64,000 nt of DNA, from contig CM119372.1 in the NCBI GenBank assembly GCA_051294905.1, forward strand, positions 32,490,001 to 32,554,000, read 5' to 3'. This DNA comes from Botryllus schlosseri (lineage: Eukaryota). This document shows positions 11,111 to 64,000 of this stretch, piece by piece (the stretch's first letter is position 1; each line of letters begins with the position of its first letter). A program made the translations under genes and the position numbers. The notes under the pieces are model-generated. The model was not told the DNA's origin, made no database searches, and was given only the letters and a program-made list of their open reading frames with translations.

Positions 11111-14100
11111 TCAGAAACGTTTTGAGAAGCGAAGTTGGAACGAGGGACTGGTGCGACCAGACGGATTTCTTTCAACGCCCTGTATATTACAAATATTGTA
11201 TCATATTTATATTGAAATCCAGCAGCTACTGCTCCTTTTGTCTAAGACGAGTAGGAAATGTTTACATTTGATGTATAGTCATTTATCACTTACCGCATTT
11301 ATTCCGAGATTTCCTCCTACAAATTTCTGTTAAAAAGTAGCAAATGGTTTTGTGAGCGCATGATTCATTTCACAGGCACGTCAAGATACAATTACTCACT
11401 CGGGAATACTCGGCACTTGCACCACGACCTCCAAATGAATTGGCGTACTGGAAAGCAAATGCAACGTATTGTATTCATCGTTTAACGAATCCTCGGAGTT
11501 GCTCGAAGGTGGCTACTTCCGAAGTTGCAAGATATGTCTGACTATTGACACTACCAATTCGTGGAATCTCCGGAGGTAGGTTTAGCTTCCTCGTACATGG
11601 TTTATTTAGGGTTACCATACGTCTTCTTTTAAGAGGATTTGTCCTCTTTTTTGACTTTTTTAAACTGTCCTCGGAAGACGCCTAAATGTCCTCTTTTTTG
11701 ACATTATTGGTAAATGTACGTGGAAATTGGACTGAGATGAAGTAAATCAGCGCTCAATTGACGGTCCGACGGGCTTTTCGGGACTTGAGCCAGAAAACGA
11801 CCTTTTTTTAGTCAACCAACCACAAAATCGGGAAAAATTTACCACTTTTCCGTATTTTAATCCGGCATACTAGGTCTGAAAATTTTCAAGAAGTGTCCTC
11901 TTTTCAGTTTTCCAAGATATGATAACCCTAGTTTATTTAAAGATGTTGTTATCTCAATTTTACTTATAAAAGGGACTCCAACTTATCCAATCACTACTCT
12001 CTGCTTTTCAAATTAAAAATTGCAAAATGTATTTTTGCCTAAATCAGGTAAGTAGAAGTGGTGTTAGTTTAAAAAGCTAGGCATTAGAGCAATGTTCCCT
12101 CTAAGCTGCGCACCTGTGCAAATGCGCAATGCTGACACGGTCTATGCGCACAGAAAATCTAAATTGCGCACAAAAAATCCGAAGTGGTGACCTTTTTTTA
12201 GTCGTTACGCACTGTTGTCCAAGGGTCTGCGCAGTAAGTAGGTGAGTGTGCTTAGACTCGGCAGAAATTTGAGGGAACGTTGCCCTTGAGTGAGTGAGTA
12301 TGTCTACTTTGGTACTCCGAAAAATTAGAAGTACTTCGTTCCTGACCACCTCGGGGTAAGCGATGGCCTGATTAATTTATTATATATGGAAAACCATCAG
12401 GGAGGACACCTCGGGGTGAATTTGAAAGTGTTGAATATTTTCGGTAGTAAAGTGAGGACACATCTTGAAACAAGAGGCCACGCTTGTCACCATTGATGTG
12501 GTATGAGAGTGCGTTCGAGTTGCACCCCTAGTTCGGACATTACAACTTCAGCCAGGCAAGTCTTTTAAGGCCGCGTCACACATTCGATCGTGGTGGTAGT
12601 CTTTTTAATTACTTTACACTCACCGCCGAAGCACCAAGTTGTCCACCAAAAGCTCTCTGTAAAAAGAAGATCGGGATACTCGTATCGTATGCTATGATTA
12701 AATCGATTGTTGTTAATCTTACCCCGGAATATCCAGCGTTCATCCCGTATCCACCGTATGAGTTTCTATTCTGTTTGCAATAAGATAATACTTTGAATGA
12801 TTTCGAGTTGGGAATGAAAACTCATTCGTTTTTATAATCACTGGTATGTATATAAAATATATCGTATATATTTCGAATCGAAACTCGTTTCCACGTAGGA
12901 CCATGTTAATCTCTATTCACATCTCATTGCATCAGCAGTCATTGTAAATTGCATTACAGAGTGTTACTATACATTCATGTTGGCTACTATATTACGCGAC
13001 TCAAGATAGTAATTGTTTCTCACCCCAGATATTGACACTCTTCCATTATTTGGTAGCCTCTGAAATAGAAATAAAGATACTTTCAACAATTACTCTCATT
13101 GATGACTCGTTCCGTGTTTTCTGATGACCAACAATTTTGGAGACGACCATCACTGATTGATAGATGGTGTAGAGGTCTTTGCTTATAAATGCTTACATGC
13201 TCGTATCCTCCACGTAGCTGCCACGTGTTGCTGGGATGGTGGAAACTCTGAAACGACACAGTAAGTTACTGATTTAGTAGTGAGGCAGATTATATAATTG
13301 TAAACACTTACCCCGCCTAAAAAGGTGTTTCCATTCCTGCCGACACCCTGAAAATCGAGAATTAAAATTTAGTTTTATGTCGAAAGGTTATGCTGCATGA
13401 TATACCGTAGATCATCAATATATCATACCACTGATCTTGCTTTCATAAACTGATATATCCTCATTAACGATTATGCTAGCTATGCGTCTCGTATATGGAA
13501 TGTAACACAGTGGGTATTGAACACACCCGATCTCCTACATACCCGGTTCAAACGTCCATTAAACGTAGTTCCTGATCTATTATGTTCCTGAAATAAAACA
13601 GAAATCGTCAAAACCAGAATACTACCTGGCTAAATTCCGACTTTATCGGAGTCATAATTGAACGTTTTCTTAACATTGCAGCACAATTGTAAAGCGCTTA
13701 GAGTCAATAAAGCGGTCGGTAATGGGTTATTGCTACTTTTTCCGGGTACTCAAGTAGTTTTTTTCTGCATGTTGGGCGATCCCAGGAAGAAGTGATTGTC
13801 GTTAATAGACGATCACTGTTTACGTCTGTACATCTTCAAACCGTAACAATAAAGTGATCTGTTATCAATTCCCCATATATTCCATCATTAGTATTGCCTA
13901 GATTGCCATTCTTCAATAAAAGTTATACTTTTATTTAGCCGAGGCAGAACAGTAATAATATCAAGATCAAACGATATATTCGAAACACGTTTAGGTAGAT
14001 CTCTAAATCAGTCGACAGTAATTTTATAGATGCACCTTGAAACATATTCACAGAATGTTAATGTCCATCTTAGATGTCTTGAACAATTTTGAACGCGATT

Positions 14101-16113
14101 GTGATAGATCAAAGCTCCCTATTCCCATCCAACATATCAAATTGTTTTGGATTGCATGGAAATTGACAACAACAAAATTCACTACTTTTCAAAAATATGT
14201 CCATGATATGCAAGGATCACGATCAATTTGATCATTCACTTACGGCCATGCACCAGAGATATAGTTCCTTAAGGTTACACAATGTGATTGTTACTTCTGC
14301 ATATCATATAGCACATGTATAGACTAGAGCGAGGGTGTCAAACATATGGTCCGCCAGGCGATTTCATCCGGCCCGCCAAGCAATTCTGAGTAGATTGAAA
14401 AAAGTTGTATTTTCCAGCACATTTCTAACAAATGTTGAGATCTTATAGTAAGAAATATCTCCTGCAATACAGCAATGTCGAAATCACAAGACGCAATAAA
14501 ACTATCCGACACCGGTGCTTTGGTTTCACTCTAGTTACCATCAGAAACAAGTCGGCGACACTGACAGGCAATTCCGAAAACGCAAAAAAGTGAACATTAA
14601 CTTCCGATTTTTATGAAATATTAACAAAAAGGCAGAATATAACAGTTTTACAAAAGTATAATTAAATATTCTGTGGTCGCTCTGCGGTATCACTTCTGGC
14701 TCAAAAGATTCCCGGCCGCCAGCTAAATATTTATTTTGCCAACTTATGTTTTAGCGGTTAATAACTGTATTCAACCGGCCAATCATTGAGTATTTGCCAA
14801 TTCCGTTGTTGCGAATGATTCCATTGTTACAATAGAATAGAAATGATCCGCAATGTAATATATTATAATATTTTGTATATAGGTGAGATCAGTGGATATC
14901 AGTGGAGATCAGTGGTCTTCCAGGTGGTACGCGAGTATATTATACTTTTCTTTAGACCGATGGGAGTTGTTAGTTCAGGTGGGGTGGGTTTTTTAAAGCC
15001 GTCGTGGGTAGGGGCAATCCCACCAATGACGGCCTACGGGCAAGAGATATAGTCGTAAAGCATTGAGATTTTCACCTAATTAAATTCCGTTTTATTATAT
15101 TTGACCACAAGAATTCCAAATGGATCCAATACAGAAATCATATCCTGCGCCGTATAATGAGCATTTTATTCACGGTAGAAACATTTTTGACCGCCTTCGG
15201 CACGCGTAACTCATGTAGGTGGTAATACGCGAGCACTGCATAAAACCTAGAAATGGTTTAGGAAAAACCACTGGGTTAGATATTGAAGTATTCAAGCGAA
15301 AAACAAGGTCGTGGATTTTGAGGTAACACTTTCAAACCATTATACGGGTCCGGTTGTGAGCGATTTCAAGGTTCGAATCCGGCGCGTGTCGCAAGTTGAG
15401 TTTTACACCCCTGCTGTTTAGTGTCCATATTCCCTTACTTAGTAGCCTACTATACTTACAATGTTGCCTTCGACACTTCCACGGGCTTGTCGCTTCGTTC
15501 TGCGTCGTGGCTACAAAAGCAATCATAAATCTCGCGGTCATTGAATATAAAAAGGATATCAGGTTACCATAGTCGGTTCGCTATGCTCATCGTATCGCTG
15601 TTTGTCATCATCCGGCACTTCAAAGCGAGGTGTCTGCAACGATTTGCGAATCAAATTGGCGTCATACAGGAAAGATAATTCAGTTAAATGCGTCCCAGTC
15701 ACAAGGGTTGGTAACGGGGAGAACCGAAATAGCAACTGAGCGCAAATTGCCAATAAAGCGGCATACCAAATTCCACTTACCGATTTCAAAACGCAATTCA
15801 CGCCATTCCAGCAGCATTCGTGAGTCTTAAGGCACTTGTCAGCGGTGTCAACAGATTCTCCGGTGCAGAGGTCCACGCACGCATCTGCATACATATTTAA
15901 TTAGTGAAAGTAGACCACCAATGCTTCCAATACGAATTTGCAACATGGGAGTTACGACTCCTAAATGGACTGCTTACCTTCCATGTCGGTGGAGCAAATG
16001 CCTATATGGACAAGAACAAGTCTGTTCAACTCGCATCTTCGCAAAGGCAAAGTAGCAGCTTGGACTTGGAGCGCAGCAGCAAAGGCTAAAAGAGCAACTG
16101 TCGTCTTTATCAT
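11111..16113 (-). CDS. Gene A: 11-exon secreted precursor (224 aa) with signal peptide, 8-Cys domain, acidic linker, RTKR furin site and a Gly-rich cationic hymenoptaecin/attacin-like peptide
   Basis: Exons 15978-16113, 15781-15884, 15568-15633, 15460-15510, 13543-13587, 13312-13347, 13197-13247, 13024-13059, 12723-12770, 12624-12656, 11111-11179. All introns are GT..AG and exon sizes match gene B. Protein: MIKTTVALLAFAAALQVQA-ATLPLRRCELNRLVLVHIGICSTDMEDACVDLCTGESVDTADKCLKTHECCWNGVNCVLKSTPRFEVPDDDKQRYDEHSEPTMPRRRTKR-QARGSVEGNIEHNRSGTTFNGRLNRGVGRNGNTFLGGSFHHPSNTWQLRGGYEHRLPNNGRVSISGNRNSYGGYGMNAGYSGRAFGGQLGASAGVERNPSGRTSPSFQLRFSKRF*. AATAAA follows the stop. Confidence 0.85.
11607..11930 (+). 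mobile_element. TAGGGTTACCAT MITE in the last intron of gene A
   Basis: TAGGGTTACCATA...TATGATAACCCTA flanked by a GTTTATT direct repeat. Confidence 0.8.
12090..12282. mobile_element. Short CAATGTTCCCTCTAA hAT-type MITE
   Basis: Ends CAATGTTCCCTCTAA / TTTGAGGGAACGTTG. Same family as 63680-63858. Confidence 0.7.
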
Positions 16114-16186
16114 GATTTATGCCTGATTCTGTCTCTTCGATATTTTCCGAAGTTTCAATATAGAGATTTTACGTGGTTGGCTGATA

Positions 16187-16212
16187 TTATATACTACTTT
16201 GTGGGGAATTCT
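16187..16212 (-). promoter_or_regulatory. TATA box plus adjacent kappaB-like motif upstream of gene A
   Basis: TATATAA on the minus strand at 16187-16193, about 75 bp above the ATG. GGGGAATTCT at 16203-16212. Gene B has the same spacing. Confidence 0.5.
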
Positions 16213-16658
16213 GCAGTGTGTGCCGCCAATATGTGGTCCAGTGAAATTGCGGTTTTCTCTGAAAGTAGCCTATACAAATCGAAAACCTATCGGATTGAGT
16301 TTCCGGAACAGTCCGTTTCAAATGAAAATTAAGTAATACCATGGTATGGGTCGTCTGAGTTTTGGACACGCATTACACCAACATATTTCGTGCAGTCGAA
16401 ACTAATTACAATCGAAGAAATCGAAATTCCGCAATATGGGTATCGCTATCACATCAAATAGGGTTCTTTCTCAGCTTTTAATTTCTCTGGTGGTGTACAC
16501 GCAGCGGATATGTTTGTGTCTTGCTGACTTTCACAGAATTATGTGACGATTCTGATAATTTATCGTGAAAATTGTTAACGCAGATGCAGATTATAGTAGT
16601 TCGGTTATTTCACCCGCACACAAACATGCACATTTTCAAAAATCACAACGTCATACCT

Positions 16659-17882: not shown

Positions 17883-19324
17883 AAGGGAGATTTGTCCTCC
17901 TTTTTTACGATATTGAAAATGTCCTCCGAGGACGCCTAAATGTCCGCTATTTTTACAATTCATCCTCATTTACAGTTTTACAGCTAGGCTAATGCCCTAA
18001 TGGACAGGGTTAACTGAAAATCGACATAAATGAGGCGAGTTGGTTAATGCGGACGTTCGAGCGGGTCATTCGAGGAGGGTTGGTTCGATTTGTTTGAAAT
18101 AAGGTCAGTTTTGTTCGAAATAAGGCCAGTCTAATGTTTTAAATGAGGATAGTCATGATAGAAATAAGGTCAGTCTCATGTTTGAAATAAGGATAGTCGC
18201 GATATTCACTATAAGGTCAGTTGCAGTATCAACATATCCAATGCAAGATATCACAGTGGTGACCCAGTCCGAACACATCCCAGACATGATGTCCGAACAC
18301 GCCCTAGACACGATGTCCGAGTTTCAACACAGGCCGAACACGCCCCAGACACCATGTTCAAATGGCAATAGAGGGCGAACACATCCCAGACATGATGTGC
18401 GAACACGCCTCAAACATGATGTCCGAGTGTCAACACAGTTCGAACACACCCCAGACACCATGTCCGAACGGCAGCACAGGGTGAACACACCCAAGACATG
18501 ATGTTTGAACACGCCCCAGAAACGATGTCCGAGTGTCAACACACGCCGAACACGCCCCAGACACCATGTCCGAAAGGCAGCACAGGCCGAATACACTCCA
18601 GACGTGATGTCCGAACACGCCCCAGACACGATGTCCGAGTATCAACACAGGCCGAACACGCCCAAGAAACCATGTCCGAATGGCAGCACAGGCCGAACAC
18701 ACCCCAGACATGATATCCCAACACGCCCCAGACACGATGTCCGAGTATCAACACAGGCCGAACACGCCCAAGACACCATGTCCATGTCTATGGCGTGTTC
18801 GGACATCATGTCTTGGGTGTGTTCACCCTGTGCTGCCATTCGGACATGGTGTCTGGGGCGTGTTCGGCCTGTGTTGACACTCGGACATCGTGTCTAGGGC
18901 GTGTTCGGACATCATGTCTGGGGTGTGTTCGAACTATGTTGACACTCGGACATCGTGTTTGGGGCGTGATCGGACATCATGTCTGGGATGTGTTCGCCCT
19001 GTGTTGCTATTTGGACATTGTGTCTGGGGCGTGTTCGGACATCACGTCTGAGGTGTGTTCGGACTGGGTCACCACTGTGATATCTCACCTTGGATATGTT
19101 GATACTGCAACTGACCTTATAGTGAAAATAGCGACTATCCTTTTAGACAACACCACAATAATCGTAAAAAAGTGGGTAATGCGGGGGATGGCCTTTTTTA
19201 GTCAACACAACAAGATTTCCAGTTATTATTAAAAAATCAGCTGTTTTCAATTTCGGTAAACAATTTTTTTTTAGGATTTTAAAAAAGTGTCCTCTTTTCC
19301 GGTTTCAAAAATACGGTAACCCTA
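17883..19324 (+). mobile_element. Degenerate TAGGGTTACCAT-family MITE shell enclosing a palindromic satellite
   Basis: gatttgtcctcc...gtcctccgaggacgcctaaatgtcc at left and aaagtgtcctcttttcc...aaaatacggtaacccta at right match the family at 11607 and 33780. Confidence 0.6.
18190..19142. repeat. Palindromic tandem array with a ~106-bp higher-order unit built from ~21- and ~32-bp subunits (GTCCGAACACGCCCCAGACAC core)
   Basis: The left half is direct repeats and the right half is their reverse complement, switching at about 18785. The unique ~70-bp flanks (gatagtcgc...gtgacccagtccgaac) are also inverted. Confidence 0.9.
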
Positions 19325-23256: not shown

Positions 23257-24070
23257 CAGAGGTGAGCAACATTTTTTCTATTCACGGCCGCATTTCGATT
23301 ACTTGTGTAGCCTACGGCCGCATTCCAGGAAACGGCCGCAATGAACTAACAGGACGCCGAATACCCATGTTAAACTGCCATGTCCATTTCCGGTGAACTC
23401 CGGACTAATCTACATTTTGATATCGGCGTACTAGACGCACTGAAATCGCGAGTGGTCAATCTGGTCATGTTATCAATAGTTACTGGGACTCGTTATGTTC
23501 GTCATTAATATTAGTAGTTTCACATATTACTATCAAATATTTATCCTTTCTCAGCCCTTGTGATCAGATTCACAGGTAGAGTTGATGAAGGGGGTGCTTT
23601 CGAAAATTTAGGGCTAGTTATAAATGATGATTCATCTTCGGGTGAGCCAATTGGTATTGGTCACTTTATTGCATGCTGGTATTTCTTGAACTCCCATCAG
23701 GATTGTCGGTATAGTGGAAAGACATTGGAATCGCCCAAACGTACCAGAAACAGATTTCTGTCGTGAGGAGCACATGATTCCAAGTTGATATTTGTATATG
23801 GGGTGCACCATTTTCCTGTGCTGTTAGCGTCGACTGTGGGGCTCAGATTGCAAAGGGAGCTACTGTATTAAAATCAAAAAATGAAGTCACAGTGAATAGC
23901 GCGCAGCGCGAAGAAAATTTCCAAGATTAATTAAAATCTCTCGAAAATTCGGGAGTCAATTTGCATGTCGACGGCCGCGAACACATACTAATTGAATTAC
24001 GTGTTGACGGCCACGCAAATTCCTCTCTACGTCCGCATGCGGCCGTACGGCCGCAGGTTGCCCACCCCTG
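23257..24070. mobile_element. hAT-type MITE
   Basis: CAGAGGTGAGCAAC...GTTGCCCACCCCTG; TSD ATTTAAAG/ATTTAAAA. Absent from the paralogous flank of gene A. Confidence 0.75.
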
Positions 24071-24396
24071 ATTTAAAAATACACCGAACTTGTGTGAACT
24101 TGGGCGTCTTCTTATTATTATCACAACTTGTTACCGCTGTCCTTTCTACCTCTATTCAGGACTATTCCACGTTGAAAAATACTCCCGTTCTTAATATCAC
24201 GCAAAACCAAAACCATTCGAGCAAATACAAGAAAATCCTAACATCGACCTTTTTACTCGTTAAAAAACCATTACAAATTGCATCATTTGTCATTTTCATA
24301 TATATATTTCATAAAACAAATGTGCTTCGAAATATTTCAACAATGATAGCAAAATATAGTTGTTTCATCGTCCATCTCTTTGTTTCAAGTTGACAT

Positions 24397-29928: not shown

Positions 29929-30009
29929 GATGTATGCGCGATTCTACCTCTTTGTTCCGAGATATTCTTGACAAATTTCAATTTAGAGAACTCACGGATT
30001 GGACAGATA

Positions 30010-52412: not shown

Positions 52413-54338
52413 ATCTAACGTATAATGAATGTTATTTATTTTTCGGAAGCACGTTATTCAATACATATTGCTAAATACACATGGAAAATCGGTATTGAAA
52501 TTGACAAAACAATGAAAGTTACTCATAAATACACACGACAATAGTCTAGCAGGCACGATGAACGTAAATAGCCTCAGGGACGGGGATTGGTGCGTCTATA
52601 AAAAGGATGACTACACTACTACGGTATCATATGAAACTCTGCTCGCGGAACGAATTCTAGTAGTTTCGATCAGTATTGATTTATAAAAAGCTGCATTGGA
52701 AAAATCGAAAATGACGATTGCATTGACTAGCTTTGTCGCTCTGCTGATTCGGTTATTTCCAAGACTCTCGGACTATAAGTAGGCCAAGAGGAGTTAATCC
52801 ACCCACGTTTTATTTCGAGAATATTCTTGATATATGAATGCGATTTGGCGTAGCCATTGTATATGGCTATAAGTGCTTTATGCCTGGTGTGGATGGGCCA
52901 ACGTATATCCGTTCATTAATTATTCATAACTATATACTTATTAAATGTCTAATTACCGATTGGGATCTGGCTAGGTCGGGTCACCATTTCAAGTTGGCTA
53001 TAGTTCTCATCAAAGTGGACTGACAAAATCGGTTAATCTTAATAAGGCTATGCGCATTCCCTGTGGCAACGAATGAAATGCCAGTTCTTCTGAAAAAACA
53101 TAGGATATATGGCTCAACATTGAGAAGGATGTTTTATGCAATTTATCATATTATGTCCTTGGGACGCTATGTTTGTGCTCAGCGCCACTGGATATCGCAT
53201 ATTAGTCGCTGGATACATGTATAAGGATTTTTTGAATCATGTTATTAAGTCCCGTATGCCATTGTGTCGCATGTTCACGTGACCACGGACAATAATGATT
53301 ATACAAACGATATCACCCATCCATCCACACTGAAATTTACCTGTCATCTTTTCGTTCTCTCTGTTGACGGAGCAATCTAAAATCTACGAAAATGAGAGTC
53401 TTATTCATAACATTAACGATTGTTGCAATCGACACGATTGATGCCGCAACTATCTCACTAAATCACTGCGAGGTAGCCAAACTCATCATTGCGTACAACG
53501 GGATATGTCCAATGAATAGTTCAGGTGGGTAAATGTATTATGTTCACCGCGTACCGGTTGAAAACTATGTGTGGAGGGTCTATTGAATATATAAAAAGCT
53601 CATAGCCATATGACCTATTGAACGTATTTTGATTTTGCCTCATAATTAGATCCTTGTGAAGACTACTGCACTGGGGAAATTATAGAAACTGAAATCGACT
53701 GCTCGATAAGAGACGAATGCTGCTGGACTGGAGAGGAATGCATAATGACAGAGGTGCGATCGTTACCCTAACACTCGCTCTGAATCACCAATCTATGGCG
53801 TCTATACTACAAAATCCTCATGTGCGTCTCGACTCGCGTGGTCGATCTATGTGCCTATGTTTGAAACCCCATAGTTAACGTACGTGTTCAGCCCTACGAT
53901 TGTGAATTGCCGCATTTCATGGAAACTGGCGTTGTATATGATATTTTGGCGGCGCTTTTTTGCCCACGGCTTCAGAATGCCCCATTTTATTTGTAATGGA
54001 CGTGGAAAAACAGATGTCGAAATAAATATCGCGAAATCCAAACGCTGATATACGTATTTCACTATAGATTCCGGAACCAAGATACGAGGATACTACGCCA
54101 GAGGAAGACTCAAACTCGGAAATGCAGGTAACCAAAAGATGTATTTTTATCTGCGATCGGCAGGCAAATATTAGACTCAGGAGAATTAGTGTTTTCCGAT
54201 CGAGCTCCCAAAGTAGTTGTGTTTGTATTGGATTCAATGAATCAACTCATGAGTCGGTATGTTGCTAATCAGTTCGCGAGCAGCCGGCTATAAACGATTC
54301 ACATTCATCACCAAATAGATAAATTAATATGTGACTTG

Positions 54339-54487
54339 TGTAATAATAGCTGCTACTTTACTAAGCTAGCAACAGACTGCAGAGTACATGTTTATTACTC
54401 GCCGGTATACAACACACTCATTGATGAAACAAGGATGCAAGCTGAAGCCTTGGAAAACATAAACGGAAATAATCAAATATTACAACA
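54339..54487 (-). repeat. 3' LTR
   Basis: TGTAATAATAGC...CAAATATTACAACA on the + strand, adjacent to the PPT. Confidence 0.9.
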
Positions 54488-54550
54488 TCTTCCTTCCAAT
54501 AGTTTAGAAGTAAGAATGGCACAGTGACTACAATACTACACAAAGAAAAG

Positions 54551-57094
54551 TCAGTATTGAAGCCGATTCGGAGCTTTGATAAGCCTGCCGGATCTCGTGG
54601 TAATTGCACGAGTGCTGCCATCACTGATTGCTGTGGCATCACCAATATCCATGTCGTTTGATTTGGATCGGATCGGAGTCTTGATAAGTCTGCAAGGTCT
54701 TGCGGTAATTGCTCGAGCGCCGTCATTAGCCATTGAAGACGCATCACCAATATCCATGTCGTTTGTTTTCGTTTGCTCGGCATCGTCGAGTGTCGCTCGT
54801 TTTGCTGCGCTGGTTTCACGTAGATGGATTCTGTTACGTACCAATTCATTACCCTTTTCAGTTAGTACCCTGTACGAACGTTCATTTTCTCTAGTCACCA
54901 CTTTAGCTGGGGACCATATTTTATCATATTTGTTGAATACACGAATCTGTTGTCCCTCTATCAATGGAGGGAGAGCCTTGCTGCGAATGTCAGAATAATC
55001 CTTCTGTTTCTGCAGTCGAGCTTGCACATGTTCTTTATAGATCTCTGGTTTGTTGCTGATACCGTGACTTGGCATAGCTGTAGGAATCGGTCTACCAAAC
55101 ATCAGCTCGGCTGGGCTAGGTAGAACACTGTCCAGTGGAGTTGCTCTAACATTTAATAGTGCCATATGGATATCTTCTCCCCCTTTCATGCATTTGCGAA
55201 GAATTGGTTTCAGGTATCCAATTTGTCGTTCGATGAACCCGTTTGATTTTGGAAAACGGGGCGAGGATTTGGTATGTTTGACACCCCACATATGACAAAA
55301 TTTGTCAAACTTGCTGAGATAGCATGGACCATTGTCGGAGACGATTTCTTGCGGCACGCCAAAAAGGCTAAAACTTTCTTTGACAACTTCGATTACGTCT
55401 TCGCTGGTGCTTGAAGACAGTTTTTTCACAATCGGGAATCGACTGTAGTAGTCTGAAATTATAATGAAATGTTTACCTTGAATTTCAAAAAGGTCTGTTC
55501 CAAGCTTGGTCCATGGCATATTTGGTCGCTCATGACTGATAAGCGGTTCTCTTGTTTGTCGCGGCAGAGCCTCCTGACATAATTCACAGTTTTTGCAGAG
55601 ATTTTCAATGTCCTTGTATAGCCCTGGCCAATAGACACTTTCCCGGCTCAGAGCACGCGTTTTCTCAATCCCTTGATGACCTGCATGAAGCTGCAACAGT
55701 ATGTCATTCTGCATGGTTTCGGGAATAATGACTTGTCGACCTTTGAAGATGATGCCATCTTCAACTGCTAGTTCGTCCCTGTAAGTCCAAAAGCTTCTCA
55801 GTTCATTTGGGATGGACTTGATATCTTCTGGCCAGCCAATGAAAATACATTCAGATAGTTTGTGGAGGACGTGGTCCTTGGTTGTCTCAGTTCTCAGATC
55901 TTTTCTCTTTTCTTCTGAAAAGTGGATCATGTCTATGTCGGTGTTTTCGATTGACCACATTGAGATTTCTTCCACATGCGAGTCAAGGTCAATATATCCA
56001 GCATTGGCTGTATTAGGCATTCTTGACAGGGTGTCTGCCAGAGTCATTTCATTGCCAGGTCTGTATTTAACATCAAAGTCATATCCTTGCACTTTCAACA
56101 TCATTCTTTGCAGCCTTGGAGGTGCGACCCGTAGAGGTTTTTTAAAGATCATTTCCAGAGGTTTGTGATCTGTGACCACGGTGAAGTATCGACCATAAAG
56201 ATAATGGTGGAATCTCTGTATACCACATATAACGGCAAGGCATTCCCTTTCTATATTGCTGTAGTTTGCTTGAGACGTCGTGAGCGTTTTACTGGCAAAT
56301 GAAATGGGTGCCCCGTCCTGAATCAAGGCTGAGCCCATTCCTTTCATCGAGGCGTCCACTTCCAATGTGACAGGACGTTGCGGGTCATAATATCTCAATG
56401 CCATGCAGTCGGAGATACCTTTTTTCATTTCGTTGAAGGCTTTCTCTTGGTCAGTATCCCAGGTGAATGGCGTATCCTTTTTAGTCAAATCTCTCAGAAT
56501 GGAAGAGCTAACCGAAAAGTTTGGGAGATGATTAGCGAGAAAGTTGGTCATCCCAAGGAACCTTTGGAGATCTAGCTTGGTTGTTGGTGACGGCATTCTC
56601 AATATGTCTCCAACCTTTTTTGGATCAGGGTATACTCCATTGTCGGTGTAAATGCGTCCAAAGAATGAGATTCTTCTTGACTTCACGATACATTTACTCT
56701 GATTAAATTTCAAACCTTCTTGCATTGCAACTTTCACGAATCTCAGGACACGTTCATCGTGTTCGACTTCTGTGCTGCCGTAGATGACTATGTCATCCGA
56801 GATTCCGGCGCAACCGTCACATTTTTCTAGAATGCTGTCCATTCGGGCTTGAAATATATCCTGACTTACTGATAGCCCGAAAGGTAGTCTCATGAAGCAA
56901 TATCGACCGAATGGAGTCCTGAATGTGGTTAGTTCTTGAGACTCCTTGGCCAGTTTCACACTCCAATACCCCGCCTTCGCATCCAGTTTGGTAAAGAACT
57001 TGGCTTTGCATAGGGATGGAGTTATTTCTTCCACCGTGGGAATATTGTGCGGATATCGTTTCAGTGCCTTGTTCAGTTGTGTGGGTCGAGGCAC
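54551..57094 (-). CDS. pol: Pol part of the retrotransposon: reverse transcriptase, RNase H, integrase
   Basis: KLDAKAGYW, RLPFGLS, GISDDIVIYG, VDAS, TDHKPL, HAGHQG...CKNCELC (HHCC), GTDLF, VSDNGP, NGFIER. Confidence 0.92.
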   Translation of the reverse strand: MPRPTQLNKALKRYPHNIPTVEEITPSLCKAKFFTKLDAKAGYWSVKLAKESQELTTFRTPFGRYCFMRLPFGLSVSQDIFQARMDSILEKCDGCAGISDDIVIYGSTEVEHDERVLRFVKVAMQEGLKFNQSKCIVKSRRISFFGRIYTDNGVYPDPKKVGDILRMPSPTTKLDLQRFLGMTNFLANHLPNFSVSSSILRDLTKKDTPFTWDTDQEKAFNEMKKGISDCMALRYYDPQRPVTLEVDASMKGMGSALIQDGAPISFASKTLTTSQANYSNIERECLAVICGIQRFHHYLYGRYFTVVTDHKPLEMIFKKPLRVAPPRLQRMMLKVQGYDFDVKYRPGNEMTLADTLSRMPNTANAGYIDLDSHVEEISMWSIENTDIDMIHFSEEKRKDLRTETTKDHVLHKLSECIFIGWPEDIKSIPNELRSFWTYRDELAVEDGIIFKGRQVIIPETMQNDILLQLHAGHQGIEKTRALSRESVYWPGLYKDIENLCKNCELCQEALPRQTREPLISHERPNMPWTKLGTDLFEIQGKHFIIISDYYSRFPIVKKLSSSTSEDVIEVVKESFSLFGVPQEIVSDNGPCYLSKFDKFCHMWGVKHTKSSPRFPKSNGFIERQIGYLKPILRKCMKGGEDIHMALLNVRATPLDSVLPSPAELMFGRPIPTAMPSHGISNKPEIYKEHVQARLQKQKDYSDIRSKALPPLIEGQQIRVFNKYDKIWSPAKVVTRENERSYRVLTEKGNELVRNRIHLRETSAAKRATLDDAEQTKTNDMDIGDASSMANDGARAITARPCRLIKTPIRSKSNDMDIGDATAISDGSTRAITTRSGRLIKAPNRLQY

Positions 57095-58635
57095 ATACGA
57101 AGATCACCGTTCTTTTTCACTGCATAGGCTAGTGAGGAGCACCAATCTGTATGTCCCTCTACTTTGCGAATAACTTTCAAGCTCACCATTCGCTCCAGTT
57201 CAGCTTTGATCTTGTCTTTTAAATTGAGAGAGACCCTTCTCGGTGGATCTATCGACGGTATGGCATCCTTCGTCACATAAAGATGCTCTTCTCCATTGAA
57301 CTCTCCAATGCCATTAATGCACCCTGGAAATCTTCTAGTAAGATCCTCCACTGTGTTCAGAGCGTCTCTGTCCGATTCACTTTTAATATCGTCGATATTA
57401 AACTGGATAAAGTCTAGTTTCAAACAACCTGGTAACCCAAGAATTACTGGTCCGGGCACATCCACAACGTAGAACTTGAACTCAACCGGTTCGTGGTCAG
57501 TTTTCTTTCTTATTGATAGCGTTATTGATCCATGGCAAAGAAGTTTCGTACCGGAGTATCCTGTCAATCGAACGTTAGGTTCGTCTAGTAGGATTTCAGC
57601 ATATGGCTTGCTGCCAAACATCTGTTTATATGTTCGTATTGGTAAAGTGTTACCACCAGCTCCTGTGTCCAGCTTGGAGTAGAGCTTGCCAGTTACTCTT
57701 GGCTCTGTGTATTTCATCAACAGAGGTATAATGACCTCTTTACAGTCCTCATCACATGCAATGTCATTGATCAATATATGGTGGAACTCAATTCCAGCTT
57801 CATCATCACTGTCCAGCTGTATCTCGTTGTGATAACTCTTTGATCTTTTGTTTCTGTGGTATTTTCTTTGAAATTGCTGTTCACTGTCTTGTTCTTCTGC
57901 AGATTCATCACGTTCATTTTGAGCATGTTTGCAGGTTTTCATCCAGTGGCCCAATTTACCACAATGATGACAAGTGGCATTATATGCAGGGCAACCTCTC
58001 GGCCTGTGATTTAGGCCACAGTTTGTACATCGTTTACCTTTCTTTATCGTGTCTATATTGTCATTGTACATTCCACTGCCAGTAGTCATCCTAGACAGTG
58101 AGTTACTTGACGCTTGGATCGCTTCATATTCTCTCCCCTTTTCTAGAATTTCAGCCAGACTAGCACCTTTAGGTTTAATCATCAATTCCTTTCGAAAGTT
58201 CTCGAATGGAGTGGATAGGATAATCATCTCTATCAGACGTTCATTCAACTCCTCAAGTCCAAACTCGCAACGAGAGGCCTTCTCCCTCAATCGTGAGATA
58301 AATCCAGTAATAGTTTCTTCAGGTCGCTGCCTGATTTGAGAGTACTCAAGCCTGTGAATACGAAAGTTAATCTTGATTGAAACGTCAATCTCACTTTCTA
58401 TCTGCTTCCATATTTCTTTTGGATCTCTTTGATTCTGCTGTGTGAGGCCAGAATTCATGATTCTGCGCATTCCCTCGTCGCCAAGCGCTATTTTTATTTT
58501 TATGGCCTTTTTCACGTCGTCTGTGATCTCTTGGTCCATAAAGAACAAGTCCATTCTTGCCTTGAAGGCTCTAAACGAGTCCACGAGCGGTTCATGTTTC
58601 CAGTCCATATGCGGCATTGGAATATTGCTTGCCAT
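57073..58635 (-). CDS. gag: Gag (two Cys/His knuckles) plus aspartic protease and the start of RT
   Basis: CTNCGLNHRPRGC and CHHCGKLGHWMKTC knuckles; LDTGA protease motif; ends in the RT motif KKNGDLRMCLDP. Confidence 0.92.
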   Translation of the reverse strand: MASNIPMPHMDWKHEPLVDSFRAFKARMDLFFMDQEITDDVKKAIKIKIALGDEGMRRIMNSGLTQQNQRDPKEIWKQIESEIDVSIKINFRIHRLEYSQIRQRPEETITGFISRLREKASRCEFGLEELNERLIEMIILSTPFENFRKELMIKPKGASLAEILEKGREYEAIQASSNSLSRMTTGSGMYNDNIDTIKKGKRCTNCGLNHRPRGCPAYNATCHHCGKLGHWMKTCKHAQNERDESAEEQDSEQQFQRKYHRNKRSKSYHNEIQLDSDDEAGIEFHHILINDIACDEDCKEVIIPLLMKYTEPRVTGKLYSKLDTGAGGNTLPIRTYKQMFGSKPYAEILLDEPNVRLTGYSGTKLLCHGSITLSIRKKTDHEPVEFKFYVVDVPGPVILGLPGCLKLDFIQFNIDDIKSESDRDALNTVEDLTRRFPGCINGIGEFNGEEHLYVTKDAIPSIDPPRRVSLNLKDKIKAELERMVSLKVIRKVEGHTDWCSSLAYAVKKNGDLRMCLDPHN

Positions 58636-58710
58636 TGTAGGTAAGGTCTTTGAAAAATGTAGGAGACAAAACGTACCTTTTCAACATAGACGCCAACACC
58701 GCTGCCACCA

Positions 58711-58854
58711 TGTAATAATAGCTGCTTCTTTACTAAGCTAGCAACAGACTGCAGAGTACATGTTTATTACTCGCCGGTATACAACACACTCATTGATGAA
58801 ACAAGGATGCAAGCTGAAGCCTTGGAAAACATAAACGGAAATAATCAAATATTA
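58711..58854 (-). repeat. 5' LTR (outer terminal bases missing)
   Basis: Near-identical to 54339-54482 and directly followed on the minus strand by the PBS. Confidence 0.9.
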
Positions 58855-61121
58855 CTACTTCACTAAATGCGTTTGCTCGTAATTGTATTTACGACTAATG
58901 TTGTCTAATTTACGTTATTCTGACGAGCAGATCCTTAATATCAGATTGCGCTCTACGAATCAAACGACACTTTTCAATCTACTTCGTTATCGCGAACAAT
59001 CAGCTCTTTTACAACTGCAAATTATACACGGGATGGATCTCTTTCAAATTTCCGATATCGGTGTTCATAGTCAGTCACGGAGGCTGTATTTTGTCGCATA
59101 TATTGTCCCTTGCATATTTATCTACTTGCTGCTATGTATGTGTAATCAATGCAATGCCTATCATAAGCAATCCTTGCTGCATCTTCCCCGTCGTTCCCTT
59201 CGACAAAATCTTCTCACTCTCCCAGAGATGGTCAGTGGCGGAGTATTTACGCTTTTTTGGAGTACTCGAGTAGGTTTTTCCTACTAATTACTCAGCTGGT
59301 CATATTTTCAGACTTTACACTTTTACATTTTTAGTAAAACCACCTTTGAGAATTCAGATTTTGTAAAGTATAAAATAGTTTTAGGATAAGATTGCATCAC
59401 TTTAAAAAGTGAGATTTTCGAAAGAACGGCATGAAATAGGTCTTGTATTACAATAACGAAAGATATTTGCGAAGATATCATCGATTTGTAGAGTACTTAA
59501 TTAGTTTGCGTTCGTCACGTAAAAAAAAACATTGCGATTTCAAAATAAGTCAGCTTCGCTTCACTGCGAAAAGCAGTGAAGTCTACGTGAAATCGGCGAA
59601 GCAGTGAAATATACGTTTGGAAACTAATTACTTGAGTACTTCTTTATCCTTTCTTTTCTACTTGCACTTGCACTGGTTTGGACATTTCTTGGAAACGGCT
59701 TCTTCTACTGATAATTGCGCAGAAATTTTCGCCGTTACGTATACATCTACTTGAGTAGCAACGATGACTAATTTGATCACCTATGCTGTTTCTATCAGGA
59801 TCAAGCTACCGTTGCGCCTATGGAGGAAAATATGCCAGAGGAGACTGTGAGTAAACGATCTGTAGCGAATCTCACGTTCCTTCTATCACTTTCGTGCGCT
59901 TACAATTCAGACGTTGAAAAGGTCTAAGCGCCGGGCAGGAGGTGGCTTCGAAGCGGACGTGGTAAGATATCCATTTGCAATGTGAATGCACGAGCTAACA
60001 CTCGTATTCTCTAGAAAATATTATGTATCAGGGATAGTAACAACGGATCTTTGTCCATACTCCATAGTATTTTTCAAGTCGACAACATGACATATGGTAT
60101 TTTTCGGTATCGAAACTACACCGCAATACAGTTTAGAAACGTTAAATATCATCCTGGTAAAATGCTTGGTGCTTATACTCCGGAAATCTTGAAGTCCCGA
60201 ACCTATTCTTATTTCATGATCGCGGTCATCCAAACATCAAATGAAAGACGTTACATCCTGATATACATATGAGCAGTTTGAAAGAGGTTGGTAGGGCCCG
60301 ACTGTCAGCGTTAAAGAAATATCGGTATATCATAATTTTCGATTGTCAAATACGGATAACTGATATGGTATTCGTTGTGGTCACATGGTGTAACTTTGAA
60401 GCTTTGTGTCCCGTTCTTGTGTAATCTGTGCATCCCAATCATAGAAGCTAATAGAAGCGGTCGATCTGGAGTCCCATTCGTCATATTGTCGAACTTGCCG
60501 GCCTTATTGGGCAGAGATGCTATTGCTATTTGATACGGATCAGAAAATAAGGACAGCCGAGTTGTTAACTTTCCATTACCATTATGACATATTTGTAAAT
60601 AAAAAATTAATAATGAAACTACAAATTGAAGCAATATTCGAAATTGTATTCAGTTACCGTGATACAGGAGAAGTTTCACTCAGTCGTTACGACAATATCA
60701 CTCAAAAAGGTGACAGAAACACATCCCATAAAACGACTTTGTATTCTTCGAAAAATGTGGAAAAAGTAATTAGTTTTGACTAAAACACTTCTAAGTCGAA
60801 GTGGATGTAGTCACAAAATATAACCATTTGATTAATTATGTGCAAGTAGACAAACCTTAATTGGCTACTCCGAAAATGTAATACTTCGTTGCTATCCACG
60901 TCTTCATAGCCTACATAGCTAGAGGTGATACATTGCTTACATTTTGTCGACCTTATTGCAATATAAGTTCCGTTATTTCAGGAAAACAAAACAAAAATGG
61001 CATAACAGTGTCAGGGGGAATTAACCAGGCATAAAATAAAATTATTCCTTGCTTCATAAATTTCTACCGTCAATACGAACGGTTCGAAGTAGCGGCTTAT
61101 GATGTCCAACGGCCATACAGT

Positions 61122-63858
61122 CATTGTTCCCTCTAATTTTTCATGAGTCCGCGCAAACACGTCAACGCACTGCGCAGGCCCTTGGACAACAGTGCGCAAC
61201 CAGCCCCCCATTGGGTGATAAACTAGCTTATGGGGGGCTTCGCCCCCAGACCCCCCTCGGCATCTAGTTTTTTGACCAGTCATTATCATCTACATGGGGC
61301 CCGTTTAATGGTTGGATCGCCTAAACGCACGAAGCGTGAAAAATTTATATAATTCATGATTGCATCGGCCAATATCATCGGGAATTGCATATATTTTGCT
61401 ATCAATCTTTATCCTCTCCATGGTCACATAATCAGATTTACCGGTCGAGCTGATCGAGTGAGGTGTGTTGGAATAGTTTGGCCCTCTAAATAATAATGAC
61501 ATCTTCGGGCCTGCCCGTTGGTATAATGATTTGTTACATGAGGCTATTTCGGGACCTCCCATCTGCTGTGTAAAAAGATATTTAAATCGCCCAAACGTAC
61601 TATACTAAAAGACGTACACGATTTCAAATTGGCATTTCTTTACCGGAAAATAATGTTCCCTCGATATGGCATTTGTCTTACACTGTAAAAACTGGGCCCA
61701 CTCCTAGAGGTGGTTCAAAATGCCACCCCATGATCAGAACGGTAGGGTGGACTGGTCTACCCACGCCACAGGGTAGACTGGTCCAACCACGCCACAGGGT
61801 AGACTGGTCTAACCACCCCTATCCGGATATAACCCTTACCTATCCGGATATTATTTACAAAAGTAAATCCAAGGCATAACAACCCATATCCTGCCCGAAA
61901 ATCTTCATCAAACGCTCAATCTCCGGTTACCAATACCAACCCATATCTTTGTCAAACGCCTATTCCTGCTGCACTCTTATATACCATATCGGTTTTTGTG
62001 ATGTTTATCGAAGTGTTCATTATGCCTCGCATGCTGACATAAATTACCAAACATCGTCATTATTTCAGGCAACTCATTTGCAAATTAGTCACTAATCTCA
62101 CGAAGTTTGGTGCGAACAGCACAACTGGCCTTTAAATTAGGCACGCGAGCGAGAAAAATCGACATGAAAGTGAGAGATCTTTCAGTCTTGGGTGAAAATG
62201 TCATGTTGAAGACCCAAGGAATTGATATCATCACCGCCAATGCGTGATGAAAGCTGCGTATTTGTGTCATGCGTTGCCCTTCAAAACCGACTGTCCACTC
62301 TTCATTCGTCGTATCAAAACAAATGACAGGGTATCCATTTCCGTGTTTGGGTGTCTGTTATTATATCAAAAAAGAATTAGGACAAATCTACACAGCACAT
62401 CACACAGACACATACTTCTAGCTATCAGCAGTGTTGGGATCAAGCCACTACCTTCGAGTGACGAGTCATTTTGACTCGAGTCAAGTCAGAATTCAAGTCA
62501 AGTTGCCTTTTCGAAGCAAGATGTATGAATATGTCTCAAGTGACTCGAGTCAAGTCAGAATTCAAGTCAAGTTGCCTTTTCGAAGTAAGATGTATCATTA
62601 CGTCTCAAGTGACTCGAGTCAAGTCACGAGTCAAGTTGCCTTTTCGAAGTAAGATGTATCATTACGTCTCAAGTGACTCGAGTCAAGTCACGAGTCAAGT
62701 TGCCTTTTCGAAGTAAGATGTATCATTACCAACCGGGGGTCCGCAAAGCATTTTCAGGGGGTTCGCGAAGCCTCAAAATAGTTGATAACCTAATTTGTAT
62801 TTTTTTAAATTCGGAAAATCACTTGGCAGTTTTGTTTTATTACTAGTAAAACTCTCAGAGCTTATATCAACAGAATAACATGAATAAAGGGATGGTAAGA
62901 ACCCTGAAAGGTTCAGGTTTGTGTGAACATTTTGCATAAGTATACTGTGGGACTCGGATCGCAGAACAGGAACATTCGGCGCCAGCCATTTAGGCGCCTA
63001 TGGACATGGACAATTAAACATATATGTATATATATCGGAGTTTTCGGTCAGCATAAGGGCAGTCCTTTTCGACCAAGGTTTTCTCGCTGCTGATCGTTCT
63101 GGCGCACTTTTCAGAGTCGCATGTTACATAGCCTATAACTTCATATGTTATGGCACGTCATGGTGCGGTAATGGCAGACGCACAAGTGCCAATTTATATA
63201 AAGCATGCGTATTTTTTTTTGTTGGGGAAGGGTAACCAATATTCCATATATCTGACAGTATCAAATCGCGCATAGTGCGACAAAAATTCATGAAATATTC
63301 CAACATATACACTATGATTTATGTTAATTCACGAAATAAATTTGGGCCCCCTTCGAGCTCGGCCCCTCCTTACGCAATGTTCATGCCACGCGGAGAAGAC
63401 TATTCGTTAGTTTCTCGCAGATTAACTTCGAGCCACTTGTTGTCCCATTGTTATTTATAACTTTGTTAAACCATGTTATTTCGCCATTCCCAGAAAATAC
63501 TGCGCTATCGAAATTATATCAGTATCGCTCACGCGTACGAGAGCATACTTTAAAAAATCTCTTCCGTGAGGCGCACGTGATTGTAAATGCTCATTTCTTC
63601 ACGGAGCGCAATATTTACCTTTGCGGGCTTCACTTGTACCTCGGTTTCAGACTTCAGTGATAACACTATTTGCCCGTGGCAATGTTCCATCTAATTTGTC
63701 ACGAGACTGCGCGCCAGCGTGGTCCATTGGACAACAGTGCGCAACGATTAAAAAAAAACATCACTTCGAATTTTCTGTGCGCAGCTTAGATTTTCTGTGC
63801 GCAGAGACCGTTTCAGCACTGCGCATTTGCGCACGTGCGCAGCTTAGAGGGAACATTG
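61122..63858. mobile_element. Composite hAT-type insertion (CAATGTTCCCTCTAA TIRs) in intron 6 of gene D
   Basis: CATTGTTCCCTCTAA...TTAGAGGGAACATTG with perfect TSD CATACAGT. The empty site is present in gene C (about 36420). Confidence 0.85.
62472..62729. repeat. Tandem array of four 64-69-bp GACTCGAGTCAAGTC units
   Basis: Units start at 62472, 62541, 62610 and 62674. Confidence 0.85.
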
Positions 63859-64000
63859 CATACAGTAGGCCTATATTGTCAGTTTGTAAATCTGACTCAT
63901 CTATACAGGACGTTGGAAGAAACGGCATTGTCCAGGCAGATGGGGTAAGTGGATTGTCGCTTTTGATCGAATAGTCTATATTTGAAGTGAACAAACCGTG

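Follow-up and report, generated by a model that had tools for sequence, protein, structure and literature searches.

Which proteins are encoded by a cluster of four paralogous genes with very short exons in the tunicate Botryllus schlosseri, and what purpose could such proteins serve? The cluster lies in a stretch of 64,000 nucleotides (nt) of assembly GCA_051294905.1 (contig CM119372.1, positions 32,490,001 to 32,554,000 of the forward strand), which we call the window and whose first letter is position 1. The original prediction, made from the DNA letters alone, took these genes, A to D, for a hidden family of precursors of antimicrobial peptides. We find that genes B, C and D are transcribed and spliced, and their sequence features make it probable that the family encodes secreted two-part precursors processed by a convertase. 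A role of the products in host defence is a tentative reading by analogy, which has to be weighed against several others.

Micro-exon genes and their transcripts

The window has a GC content of about 0.40, and its only long open reading frames (ORFs) are those of a retrotransposon. None of the 32 ORFs of at least 100 amino acids (aa) contains a complete gene of the family, which agrees with the claim that the genes are invisible as coherent ORFs; one of them, of 111 aa (15559-15894, minus strand), is only a readthrough of gene A exon 2, intron 2 and exon 3. Self-comparison of the window reveals two pairs of duplicated segments. The old pair, 69-87% identical, comprises 10974-11219, 12578-13762 and 15424-16597 against 24265-24509, 25023-26205 and 29238-30398. 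The young pair, 89-96% identical, comprises 32084-33780, 34168-36427 and 36427-36555 against 52615-54332, 58852-61121 and 63872-64000, and its second copy is split by a 4.5-kb element with 98%-identical long terminal repeats (LTRs). Coding pieces were first picked by six-frame scans and by tblastx between the duplicate pairs; two of them are conserved, one with an ATG, a hydrophobic stretch and two Cys, the other with six Cys and a Trp. When the old pair was aligned, islands of high identity stood out, bounded by AG and GT and with lengths that are multiples of three, amid poorly conserved sequence, and an exon enumerator recovered the same islands together with their counterparts in the young pair.

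The resulting models comprise 11 exons in gene A (13 with two A-specific candidates), 11 in gene B, nine in gene C and nine in gene D. Genes A and B are read from the minus strand and genes C and D from the plus strand. Gene A's stop codon (11111-11113) and the end of a gene D exon at 63944 match exactly the limits of the span originally proposed. Six exons of gene D fall inside the window, and the last three, beyond base 64000, were read from the same contig. The features of gene A are as follows.

16183-16195, minus: TATA-like box, ATG 70-82 nt downstream; 13-mer shared with gene B and conserved in the A/B alignment
15978-16113, minus: exon 1, 136 nt; ATG at 16113, signal-like N-terminus, Cys 1-2; ends in phase 1, donor GT
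15781-15884, minus: exon 2, 104 nt; Cys 3-8
15568-15633, minus: exon 3, 66 nt; acidic spacer
15460-15510, minus: exon 4, 51 nt; holds R-T-K-R
13543-13587, minus: exon 5, 45 nt; A/B alignment and exon model
13312-13347, minus: exon 6, 36 nt; A/B alignment and exon model
13197-13247, minus: exon 7, 51 nt; A/B alignment and exon model
13024-13059, minus: exon 8, 36 nt; A/B alignment and exon model
12723-12770, minus: exon 9, 48 nt; A/B alignment and exon model
12624-12656, minus: exon 10, 33 nt; A/B alignment and exon model
11400-11447, minus: candidate exon 11, 48 nt; A-specific, AG/GT, phase 0, F-G-G...A-S-A motif
11294-11326, minus: candidate exon 12, 33 nt; A-specific, AG/GT, phase 0, family motif
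11111-11179, minus: last coding exon, 69 nt; stop codon at 11111-11113, product ends S-K-R-F

All internal boundaries in the four models are AG...GT. The phase is 1 at the end of exon 1 and 0 again after exon 2, and the later exons are symmetric. Between genes A and B the sizes of the first ten exons are equal (the last is 69 versus 75 nt), and the coding exons differ at 99 of 672 positions, which makes them 85% identical, above the 69-82% identity of eight A/B introns. The proposed family of four paralogues with exons of 33-136 nt, GT..AG introns, matching A/B exon sizes and exons better conserved than introns is thus borne out. Genes C and D do without four of the A/B micro-exons and, as a correction to the prediction, have one extra acidic exon, the frame being kept throughout; gene D, moreover, runs past the window. 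The extra acidic exon had been missed because exon sizes were matched to those of genes A and B. The window contains just two copies of a 13-nt TATA-like motif (0.02 would be expected), and they precede the ATGs of genes A and B by 70-90 nt.

The two candidate exons of gene A have good splice sites and the family motif and are without counterpart in gene B; sequence comparison ruled them out as recent copies of other exons. Judged from its sequence, gene A, a paralogue of the transcribed copies, probably includes these two extra Gly-rich exons and so follows the 13-exon rather than the 11-exon model.

RNA was mapped on 24000-43999, the part of the window that holds genes B and C. The data comprise two raw RNA-seq runs of 2026 from one study with the same species label (X21, 12.9 million records read; X23, 7.4 million) and two small-share contig sets from other studies (X1 and X2). 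The libraries are unstranded, so that strand was taken from splice signals. Fifteen exon joints are displayed, and 67 further joints exist outside that display. In the lists below, a joint is given as the two positions joined.

Gene B:
30006-30018, minus: TATA-like box; same 13-mer as upstream of gene A
29793-29928, minus: exon 1, 136 nt; model, with RNA read depth in the bin; joint not among the 15 displayed
29596-29699, minus: exon 2, 104 nt; Cys 3-8
29383-29448, minus: exon 3, 66 nt; A/B alignment and exon model
29271-29321, minus: exon 4, 51 nt; R-A-K-R
25987-26031, minus: exon 5, 45 nt; A/B alignment and exon model
25719-25754, minus: exon 6, 36 nt; joint 25654/25719 (61 raw reads in X21, plus X2 contig)
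25604-25654, minus: exon 7, 51 nt; RNA joints 25484/25604 and 25654/25719
25449-25484, minus: exon 8, 36 nt; RNA joints 25200/25449 and 25484/25604
25153-25200, minus: exon 9, 48 nt; RNA joints 25092/25153 and 25200/25449
25060-25092, minus: exon 10, 33 nt; RNA joints 24471/25060 and 25092/25153
24248-24471, minus: last exon; 75 nt coding at 24397-24471, ends ...S-K-R-F-G-K; 3' untranslated region (UTR) at least to 24248

Gene C:
32829-32990, plus: exon 1, 133 nt coding; ATG at 32858, 5' UTR from at least 32829; joint 32990/33114
33114-33217, plus: exon 2, 104 nt; Cys 3-8; RNA joints
33532-33591, plus: exon 2b, 60 nt, acidic; RNA joints 33217/33532 and 33591/35103, seen only in RNA
35103-35150, plus: exon 3, 48 nt, acidic; model and RNA joint
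35215-35265, plus: exon 4, 51 nt; R-S-K-R; RNA joint
36464-36499, plus: exon 5, 36 nt; model and RNA joint
37797-37847, plus: exon 6, 51 nt; RNA, the displayed joint carrying gene D's 3-nt insertion
37910-37942, plus: exon 7, 33 nt; model and RNA joint
39248-39404, plus: last exon, 78 nt coding; stop codon at 39323-39325, ends ...R-R-W-G-R-K; 3' UTR at least to 39404

Gene D:
53392-53524, plus: exon 1, 133 nt; D-specific letters in RNA at the gene C places 32862, 32898 and 32941
53650-53753, plus: exon 2, 104 nt; alignment with the other copies
54068-54127, plus: exon 2b, 60 nt, acidic; counterpart of the RNA-defined exon 2b of gene C
59799-59846, plus: exon 3, 48 nt; exon model
59911-59961, plus: exon 4, 51 nt; R-S-K-R
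63909-63944, plus: exon 5, 36 nt; last gene D exon inside the window
1105-1158, 1221-1255 and from 3792 bases past base 64000, plus: exons 6 (54 nt), 7 (35 nt) and last; contig sequence

Gene B shows five consecutive GT..AG joints, from its last exon to exon 6 (24471/25060, 25092/25153, 25200/25449, 25484/25604 and 25654/25719), supported by 54-72 raw reads apiece in X21 and by 0-6 in X23; an 812-nt X2 contig contains all five. The joint between the last exon and exon 10 is carried by 63 raw reads of X21, and the corresponding contig piece is 24248-24470. The other five joints of gene B are not among the 15 displayed; by arithmetic, the 812-nt contig would be made up of 223 nt of the last exon, all internal exons and 119 nt of exon 1. 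The joints displayed for genes C and D number eight and lead from exon 1 through the last exon; two of them define the acidic exon 33532-33591. One joint, from exon 5 (36499) to exon 6, bypasses a candidate gene C exon at 36877-36927, which was rejected. Where the contigs of X1 (599 nt) and X2 (707 nt) depart from the gene C sequence, their letters are exactly those of gene D, and the boundaries of the 707-nt contig fit the gene D sizes to the base (162+104+60+48+51+36+54+35 = 550). Raw reads show the letters of both genes in exon 1, so both C and D are transcribed.

The gene D contig spans exon 1 to the last exon, and Cys-rich exons are therefore joined to Gly-rich exons in RNA, as the check proposed for the predicted junctions had called for. 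An intronless copy was found nowhere in the 495.5-Mb genome in searches with exon 2 and with the gene A Gly-rich region, so that the joined forms represent RNA. Exon skipping is seen in none of the 15 joints displayed, 67 others lying outside the display. Most reads are 95-99% rather than at least 99% identical to the window, which indicates that the species is polymorphic. Gene B is well covered in X21 and nearly absent in X23, while genes C and D are covered alike in both; the two subfamilies thus appear to be regulated independently.

Compared with gene C, gene D has a 3-nt insertion in exon 6, an altered last codon of that exon and a 2-nt insertion in exon 7. The latter is not an assembly error, because the RNA contigs of two studies contain the same insertion. 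Despite the resulting frameshift, gene D is still transcribed, and it is still spliced across the retrotransposon in its intron 2b.

Precursor layout, constraint and homology searches

The first 18-19 residues of the translated products are hydrophobic, with a grand average of hydropathy (GRAVY) of 1.45-1.81 and small residues at positions -3 and -1, and by the -3/-1 rule they are a putative signal peptide. An N-terminal domain of 61 aa holds all eight Cys and has a net charge of -3 to -4 in A and B and of -10 to -11 in C and D. It is followed by a Cys-free spacer, acidic in A, C (linker charge -8) and D, and by the motif R-X-K-R in all four genes (R-T-K-R in A, R-A-K-R in B, R-S-K-R in C and D), behind which no Cys occurs in any of them. 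The proposed layout, here with a putative signal peptide, of eight-Cys domain, acidic linker, basic site and Cys-free tail therefore applies to the whole family, except that the linker of gene B is only weakly acidic (4 D/E versus 2 K/R before the basic site).

The tail of the 11-exon model of gene A has 115 aa with 23 Gly, 15 K+R and 4 D+E, which reproduces the predicted figures exactly. Tail length is 75-117 aa over the family, or 142 aa if the two candidate exons of gene A are used, and Gly makes up 17-21% over the four genes (20-21% in A, B and C), with Asn, Ser and Arg also abundant. The isoelectric point (pI) of the tail is 11.76 in A, 11.33 in B and 10.76 in C, at net charges of +11, +13 and +5. 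In A and B the first residue behind the cleavage site is Gln. At the other end, the product of gene A closes with ...S-K-R-F, that of gene B with the same residues plus Gly-Lys, and that of gene C with ...S-R-R-W plus Gly-Arg-Lys. A basic-basic-aromatic end is thus kept in both subfamilies, and a C-terminal Gly followed by basic residues, a classical amidation signal, is found in two of the three intact genes (B and C) and is absent from A.

Ratios of non-synonymous to synonymous substitution rates (dN/dS) were computed by the Nei-Gojobori method with our own script. Between genes A and B the ratio is 0.25 for the whole precursor, 0.54 for the signal, 0.21 for the Cys domain, 0.30 for the spacer and 0.18 for the Gly-rich part, at a dS of about 0.41. 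Both halves of the precursor are under purifying selection, which implies that both are functional. The Gly-rich part is not the variable half; between A and B it is the most constrained. For genes C and D, compared up to the frameshift, dN/dS is 0.38 at a dS of 0.07, from a total of 10 non-synonymous and 7 synonymous changes, and the tail alone gives 0.96 from only 4 substitutions. Across both subfamilies, 14 of the 34 columns of exon 2 are invariant, among them six Cys and the Trp.

A genome search with exon 2 returned the four copies of the window and one match at chance level (E value 1.1), and a DNA-level search with the gene A Gly-rich region returned A and B only. The family is confined to this locus, with four copies in a 495-Mb genome. 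Tandem duplication, as proposed, is real; the idea of an expanding family is not sustained by so small a number, the youngest copy, D, being frameshifted.

Searches for relatives gave blanks throughout. Pfam, the Attacin_N, Attacin_C and Gloverin profiles included, returned no match for ten single-exon pieces of 20-49 aa, three of them searched at E up to 1 and seven at E up to 10. A word-indexed search of longer proteins with the exon 2 alignment brought up 983 candidates, not one of which reached an E of 10 or less, an exhaustive HMMER search with a 34-position exon 2 profile found nothing among 1,835,955,588 proteins at E up to 0.001, and the ESM Atlas gave no usable match to exon 2. These blanks carry little weight because the longest real queries were single exons of 34-45 residues and because the species is barely represented, even its own transcripts being absent from the protein libraries. 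With libraries of such a size, distant relatives are beyond the reach of a profile of 34 aa. As a control of the libraries, the pol protein of the gene D retrotransposon had one match at 88% (from a sequencing-run assembly) and then none above 63%.

Modelled alone from a four-sequence alignment, exon 2 has a mean predicted local distance difference test (pLDDT) score of 85.4, with short strands and one helix, and this model fits a compact disulfide domain. Foldseek returned three rows for it, at E 4.2-6.4 and none significant. In an exhaustive aligner only one of 48,161 chains reached Z of at least 2 (Z 2.3), an unrelated trypanosome domain. Neither output was accepted as evidence for a fold class. 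Two of the three Foldseek rows (a Sema3A complex and the MET receptor) are entries whose proteins contain a PSI domain. PSI domains resemble the present domain in being small, with eight Cys and a Cys-Trp neighbourhood; the Cys spacing presumably differs. We treat the fold as unassigned. As to PSI, the two E values, 4.2 and 6.4, are not significant, the exhaustive aligner omits both proteins and Pfam has no match at E up to 1, for a comparison that covers exon 2 and thus six of the eight Cys.

Full-text searches of the literature found no description of such a family in the portions of papers that they cover. Rusticalin of Styela is a different protein according to the available part of its description (PMC6339383). 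The domain combination, which the original prediction did not recognise either, matches no described family that we could find, in Pfam or in protein libraries with single-exon queries; to judge from sequence, the family appears new and its design known.

A possible role in host defence and the competing readings

How would such a precursor work? In the scheme that we consider probable, the N-terminus would act as signal peptide and a furin-type convertase would cut after R-X-K-R in the secretory pathway, parting an anionic, disulfide-rich N-terminal piece from a cationic Gly-rich polypeptide. In the products of genes B and C the terminal Gly-Lys and Gly-Arg-Lys would be trimmed and the new C-terminus (...K-R-F or ...R-R-W) amidated. 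The anionic N-terminal part may neutralise the cationic part until release, and the released Gly-rich polypeptide would be the effector. As its role we put forward host defence, tentatively and by analogy.

By its physical chemistry the tail resembles large Gly-rich antibacterial proteins of insects (attacin, gloverin, diptericin) and not short helical peptides. Attacins are described, in the available portions of the source, as pre-pro-proteins with a furin-like cut at RXXR and a Gly-rich, Cys-free mature part of about 190 aa with a charge of -3 to +10, each of the Gly-rich domains being encoded by one exon (PMC7924397). Within the limits of these portions, the family shares with the attacin, gloverin and diptericin group a signal peptide (putative here), a pro-piece, a furin-type site and a large Cys-free, Gly-rich polypeptide that can be cationic. 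The pre-pro layout with a basic site ahead of a Cys-free Gly-rich part is found in all four genes, with predicted cleavage. The insect attacin type is the nearest functional analogue. The Gly-rich part is encoded by six to nine micro-exons here as opposed to one exon per domain in that description, the host is not an insect, and the pro-piece consists of the 61-aa eight-Cys domain and the acidic spacer, whereas to our knowledge the pro-piece of the insect proteins is short and without a disulfide domain. Pfam, searched with single-exon pieces, gave no sequence match that would relate the family to attacins, diptericins or gloverins.

The original prediction had instead invoked a logic like that of cathelicidins, with a conserved prodomain and a variable effector. 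Cathelicidins have a cathelin (cystatin-like) pro-domain of about 100 aa with four conserved Cys, a hypervariable mature peptide and an elastase-type site. On this general picture, a Cys-containing anionic pro-domain before a cationic C-terminal peptide and the occurrence in small gene clusters are shared features. Membership was rejected: the Cys domain is 61 aa long with eight Cys, and the exon 1 and exon 2 pieces have no Pfam match at E up to 1. The proposed logic fails as well, the A/B tail (dN/dS 0.18) being no more variable than the pro-domain (0.21). The site is of the convertase and not the elastase type, and the genes here have 9-13 exons.

Closer to home, styelins, clavanins, botryllin and turgencins are described, in the available parts of two sources, as pre-pro-peptides of tunicate blood cells, some of them C-terminally amidated (PMC9966394, PMC7024374). 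So far as these parts tell, the known peptides are short, helical or six-Cys molecules, and not a Gly-rich, Cys-free tail of 75-117 aa behind an eight-Cys domain. We found no domain common to them and the present family.

In architecture alone, the family can be set beside the micro-exon genes (MEGs) of schistosomes, which are its nearest analogue in this respect. MEGs encode secreted products from short exons of 3-81 bp interspersed with introns, as given in the available part of the source (PMC10526429). As in that account of MEGs, short symmetric exons between a signal-peptide exon (putative here) and a terminal exon carry the greater part of the coding sequence: exons of 33-66 nt, each in phase 0 and divisible by three in length, make up 10 of 13 exons in gene A (447 of 756 coding nt) and 8 of 11 in gene B (366 of 681). 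ORF-based views miss the genes of both groups. The phylum is unrelated, a relation in sequence is not expected, and the exons stand at the upper end of the MEG size range given there. Exon-skipping variants, a hallmark of MEGs, do not appear among the 15 displayed joints.

A more specific version of the host-defence reading would see here a new effector family of chordates (tunicates), consisting of a four-disulfide pro-domain, a convertase site and a Gly/Asn-rich cationic polypeptide built from micro-exons. Each symmetric micro-exon would be one Gly-turn module, a schistosome-MEG-like architecture would have arisen independently in a deuterostome, and the effector would have been varied by exon gain (A), exon loss (C, D) and frame change (D). 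We hold this version to be unlikely.

Several observations weigh against a defensive role. The tail is very hydrophilic (GRAVY about -0.95), no amphipathic segment could be identified in it by eye, and with a dN/dS of 0.18 the Gly-rich part is not diversifying, unlike many effectors engaged in arms races. Upstream of the four genes a scan for kappa-B-like motifs found none; the 6 matches of the window, against 5.6 expected, all lie outside promoters. Gene A lacks the Gly for amidation. The claim of a cationic tail stands for genes A, B and C (pI 10.8-11.8) and falls for gene D, where, owing to the 2-nt insertion in exon 7, the last exon is read in another frame and the tail becomes acidic (pI 4.35). 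Yet at the D-specific places shown gene D has more reads than gene C, its letter being present in 21 of 30 X21 reads at place 32862 and in 21 of 29 at place 32898; either cationic charge is dispensable in one transcribed copy, or gene D is decaying.

The same features can be read in other ways. The products could be structural or adhesive extracellular proteins of the tunic, of a wound plug or of an attachment organ, in which the tail would serve as a cross-linkable matrix or adhesive module, each micro-exon would contribute one Gly-turn unit and the Cys-rich head would serve for assembly or anchoring and be either cut off or kept on secretion. Tunicates do build an extracellular tunic, and the tail, with 20% Gly, 11% Asn, 11% Ser, 13% Arg/Lys, 10% aromatic residues, a pI above 10.7 and no Cys, has a composition like that of basic adhesive proteins rich in Gly, Asn, Arg and Tyr. 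Modular symmetric micro-exons, typical of repetitive structural proteins, and purifying selection on the tail also agree with this view. The tail is, however, short (75-117 aa) and not truly repetitive, as the exon peptides differ and no repeat exists between exons at the DNA level; its Tyr content is modest, and the Gly-basic amidation signal together with R-X-K-R is better suited to a peptide of regulated secretion. Moderate RNA read support, below that of a bulk structural protein, is a weaker objection. We regard a structural function as unlikely. That same regulated-secretion signature speaks for a signalling precursor, whose N-terminal domain would be a ligand like a cytokine or hormone, or whose amidated C-terminal polypeptide would be the hormone, the two being separated by a convertase. 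R-X-K-R in four of four genes, a Gly-basic C-terminus in two of three intact ones, an N-terminal Gln of the tail in A and B that might cyclise, and the constraint on both halves would all suit such a precursor, as would the presence of only four copies with subfamily-specific expression. RF- and RW-amide peptides end much like the basic-basic-aromatic C-terminus conserved in both subfamilies. A tail of 75-117 aa with 20% Gly is nevertheless unlike known neuropeptides and has no repeated identical peptide units between dibasic sites, gene A is without the amidation Gly, and Pfam gave no match to a hormone or cytokine family on single exons, which leaves this reading improbable too.

The roles of the two halves could also be reversed, so that the Cys-rich domain would be the effector (an inhibitor, a binding module or a disulfide-stabilised defence peptide) and the tail a disordered pro-region or spacer to be discarded. 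The compact model of exon 2 (pLDDT 85.4), its 14 of 34 columns invariant across subfamilies and the continued transcription of gene D, which keeps an intact N-terminal domain in front of a frameshifted tail, lend some colour to this. In opposition to it, the A/B tail is at least as constrained as the Cys domain (0.18 versus 0.21), its C-terminal motif is kept between subfamilies, which would be unexpected of a throw-away spacer, and both the charge pattern and the place of the convertase site are what one would expect if the N-terminal part were the pro-piece; we hold the reversal to be quite unlikely. Finally, the genes might be lineage-specific and without present function, transcribed while decaying. 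Gene D, with its frameshift, 3-nt insertion and 4.5-kb intronic retrotransposon, looks the part, the C/D tail dN/dS of 0.96 (from 4 substitutions) would agree and no relatives were found elsewhere. Against decay of the family stand the overall A/B dN/dS of 0.25 at a dS of 0.41, the intact splice sites and frames of A, B and C, and splicing that is accurate with moderate read support, and such an explanation is very improbable.

Host defence remains a tentative reading of a more probable processing scheme. For gene finding, matching of exon sizes combined with intron/exon conservation recovered secreted micro-exon genes from raw DNA, with confirmation by RNA-seq, and a search of two large protein libraries, in which there is hardly any material from the species, found no protein containing exon 2. 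Should the tail prove to be a defence polypeptide, tunicates would gain a large Gly-rich effector class, so far mainly an insect one, behind a new disulfide pro-domain; if so, the design of anionic pro-piece, furin site and Gly-rich cationic protein would become a candidate for convergent evolution. Symmetric micro-exon arrays for secreted proteins are best known from schistosomes, and an unrelated second example would make it possible to test whether such an architecture favours modular variation: between the subfamilies whole exons are present or absent with the reading frame kept. The scale is limited, as the family is tiny and one of its copies is degenerating.

Other elements of the locus and genome

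The element that splits the second copy of the young duplicate pair lies in intron 2b of gene D.

54339-58861, minus: Gypsy-type LTR retrotransposon, antisense to gene D; LTRs at 54339-54489 and 58711-58861

The two LTRs, of 151 nt, have 98% identity, and the frames of the element are open, with a gag-like product of 520 aa and a pol protein of 847 aa that contains reverse transcriptase, RNase H and integrase domains. The element is young, and its best named relative comes from Styela clava (60% identity).

The introns and flanks of the four genes also contain several dispersed repeat families (26264-27137, 3837-4705, 61317-63366 and others). In gene B, the intron of 3.2 kb that separates exons 4 and 5 consists mostly of one such insertion. 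At these repeats the summed word depths of contig runs are very high. Between genes A and B, a block at 18265-19066 consists of 106-nt tandem repeats (4.9 copies, 87% matches) followed by an inverted copy, and gives rise to several spurious ORFs of 100-145 aa. At 38161-38262 a 48-nt tandem unit, present twice, attracts thousands of RNA reads (X21 depth of about 130 per direction), which run on into unlike sequence on both sides; the unit is probably a transcribed dispersed repeat or satellite sited elsewhere in the genome.

Two ORFs of 176 and 150 aa on opposite strands at 41110-42267 have Cys/His patterns like those of transposase-associated zinc fingers. Pfam has no match to either, RNA contigs and reads cover the region, and the ORFs are probably remnants of a DNA transposon. 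The sole match of the window to an Rfam family is a tRNA-Leu gene with anticodon TAA (45591-45674, minus strand, 52 bits).

On another contig, at about 15.02-15.09 Mb, two tandem loci each contain matches to glycosyltransferase-2 and to GH6 that share a strand. In both pairs glycosyltransferase-2 (60 bits) lies upstream of GH6 (28-32 bits, above the cut-off), at spacings of 3 kb and 20 kb, a cellulose-synthase-like arrangement that points to a tunicate host with two gene copies. Mitochondrial COX1, looked for as a taxonomic marker, is absent from the assembly. In the available parts of the respective sources, cellulose synthase is reported from all tunicate genomes and from no other animal genomes (PMC6523144), and GH6 genes are described as a tunicate feature (PMC7464555).

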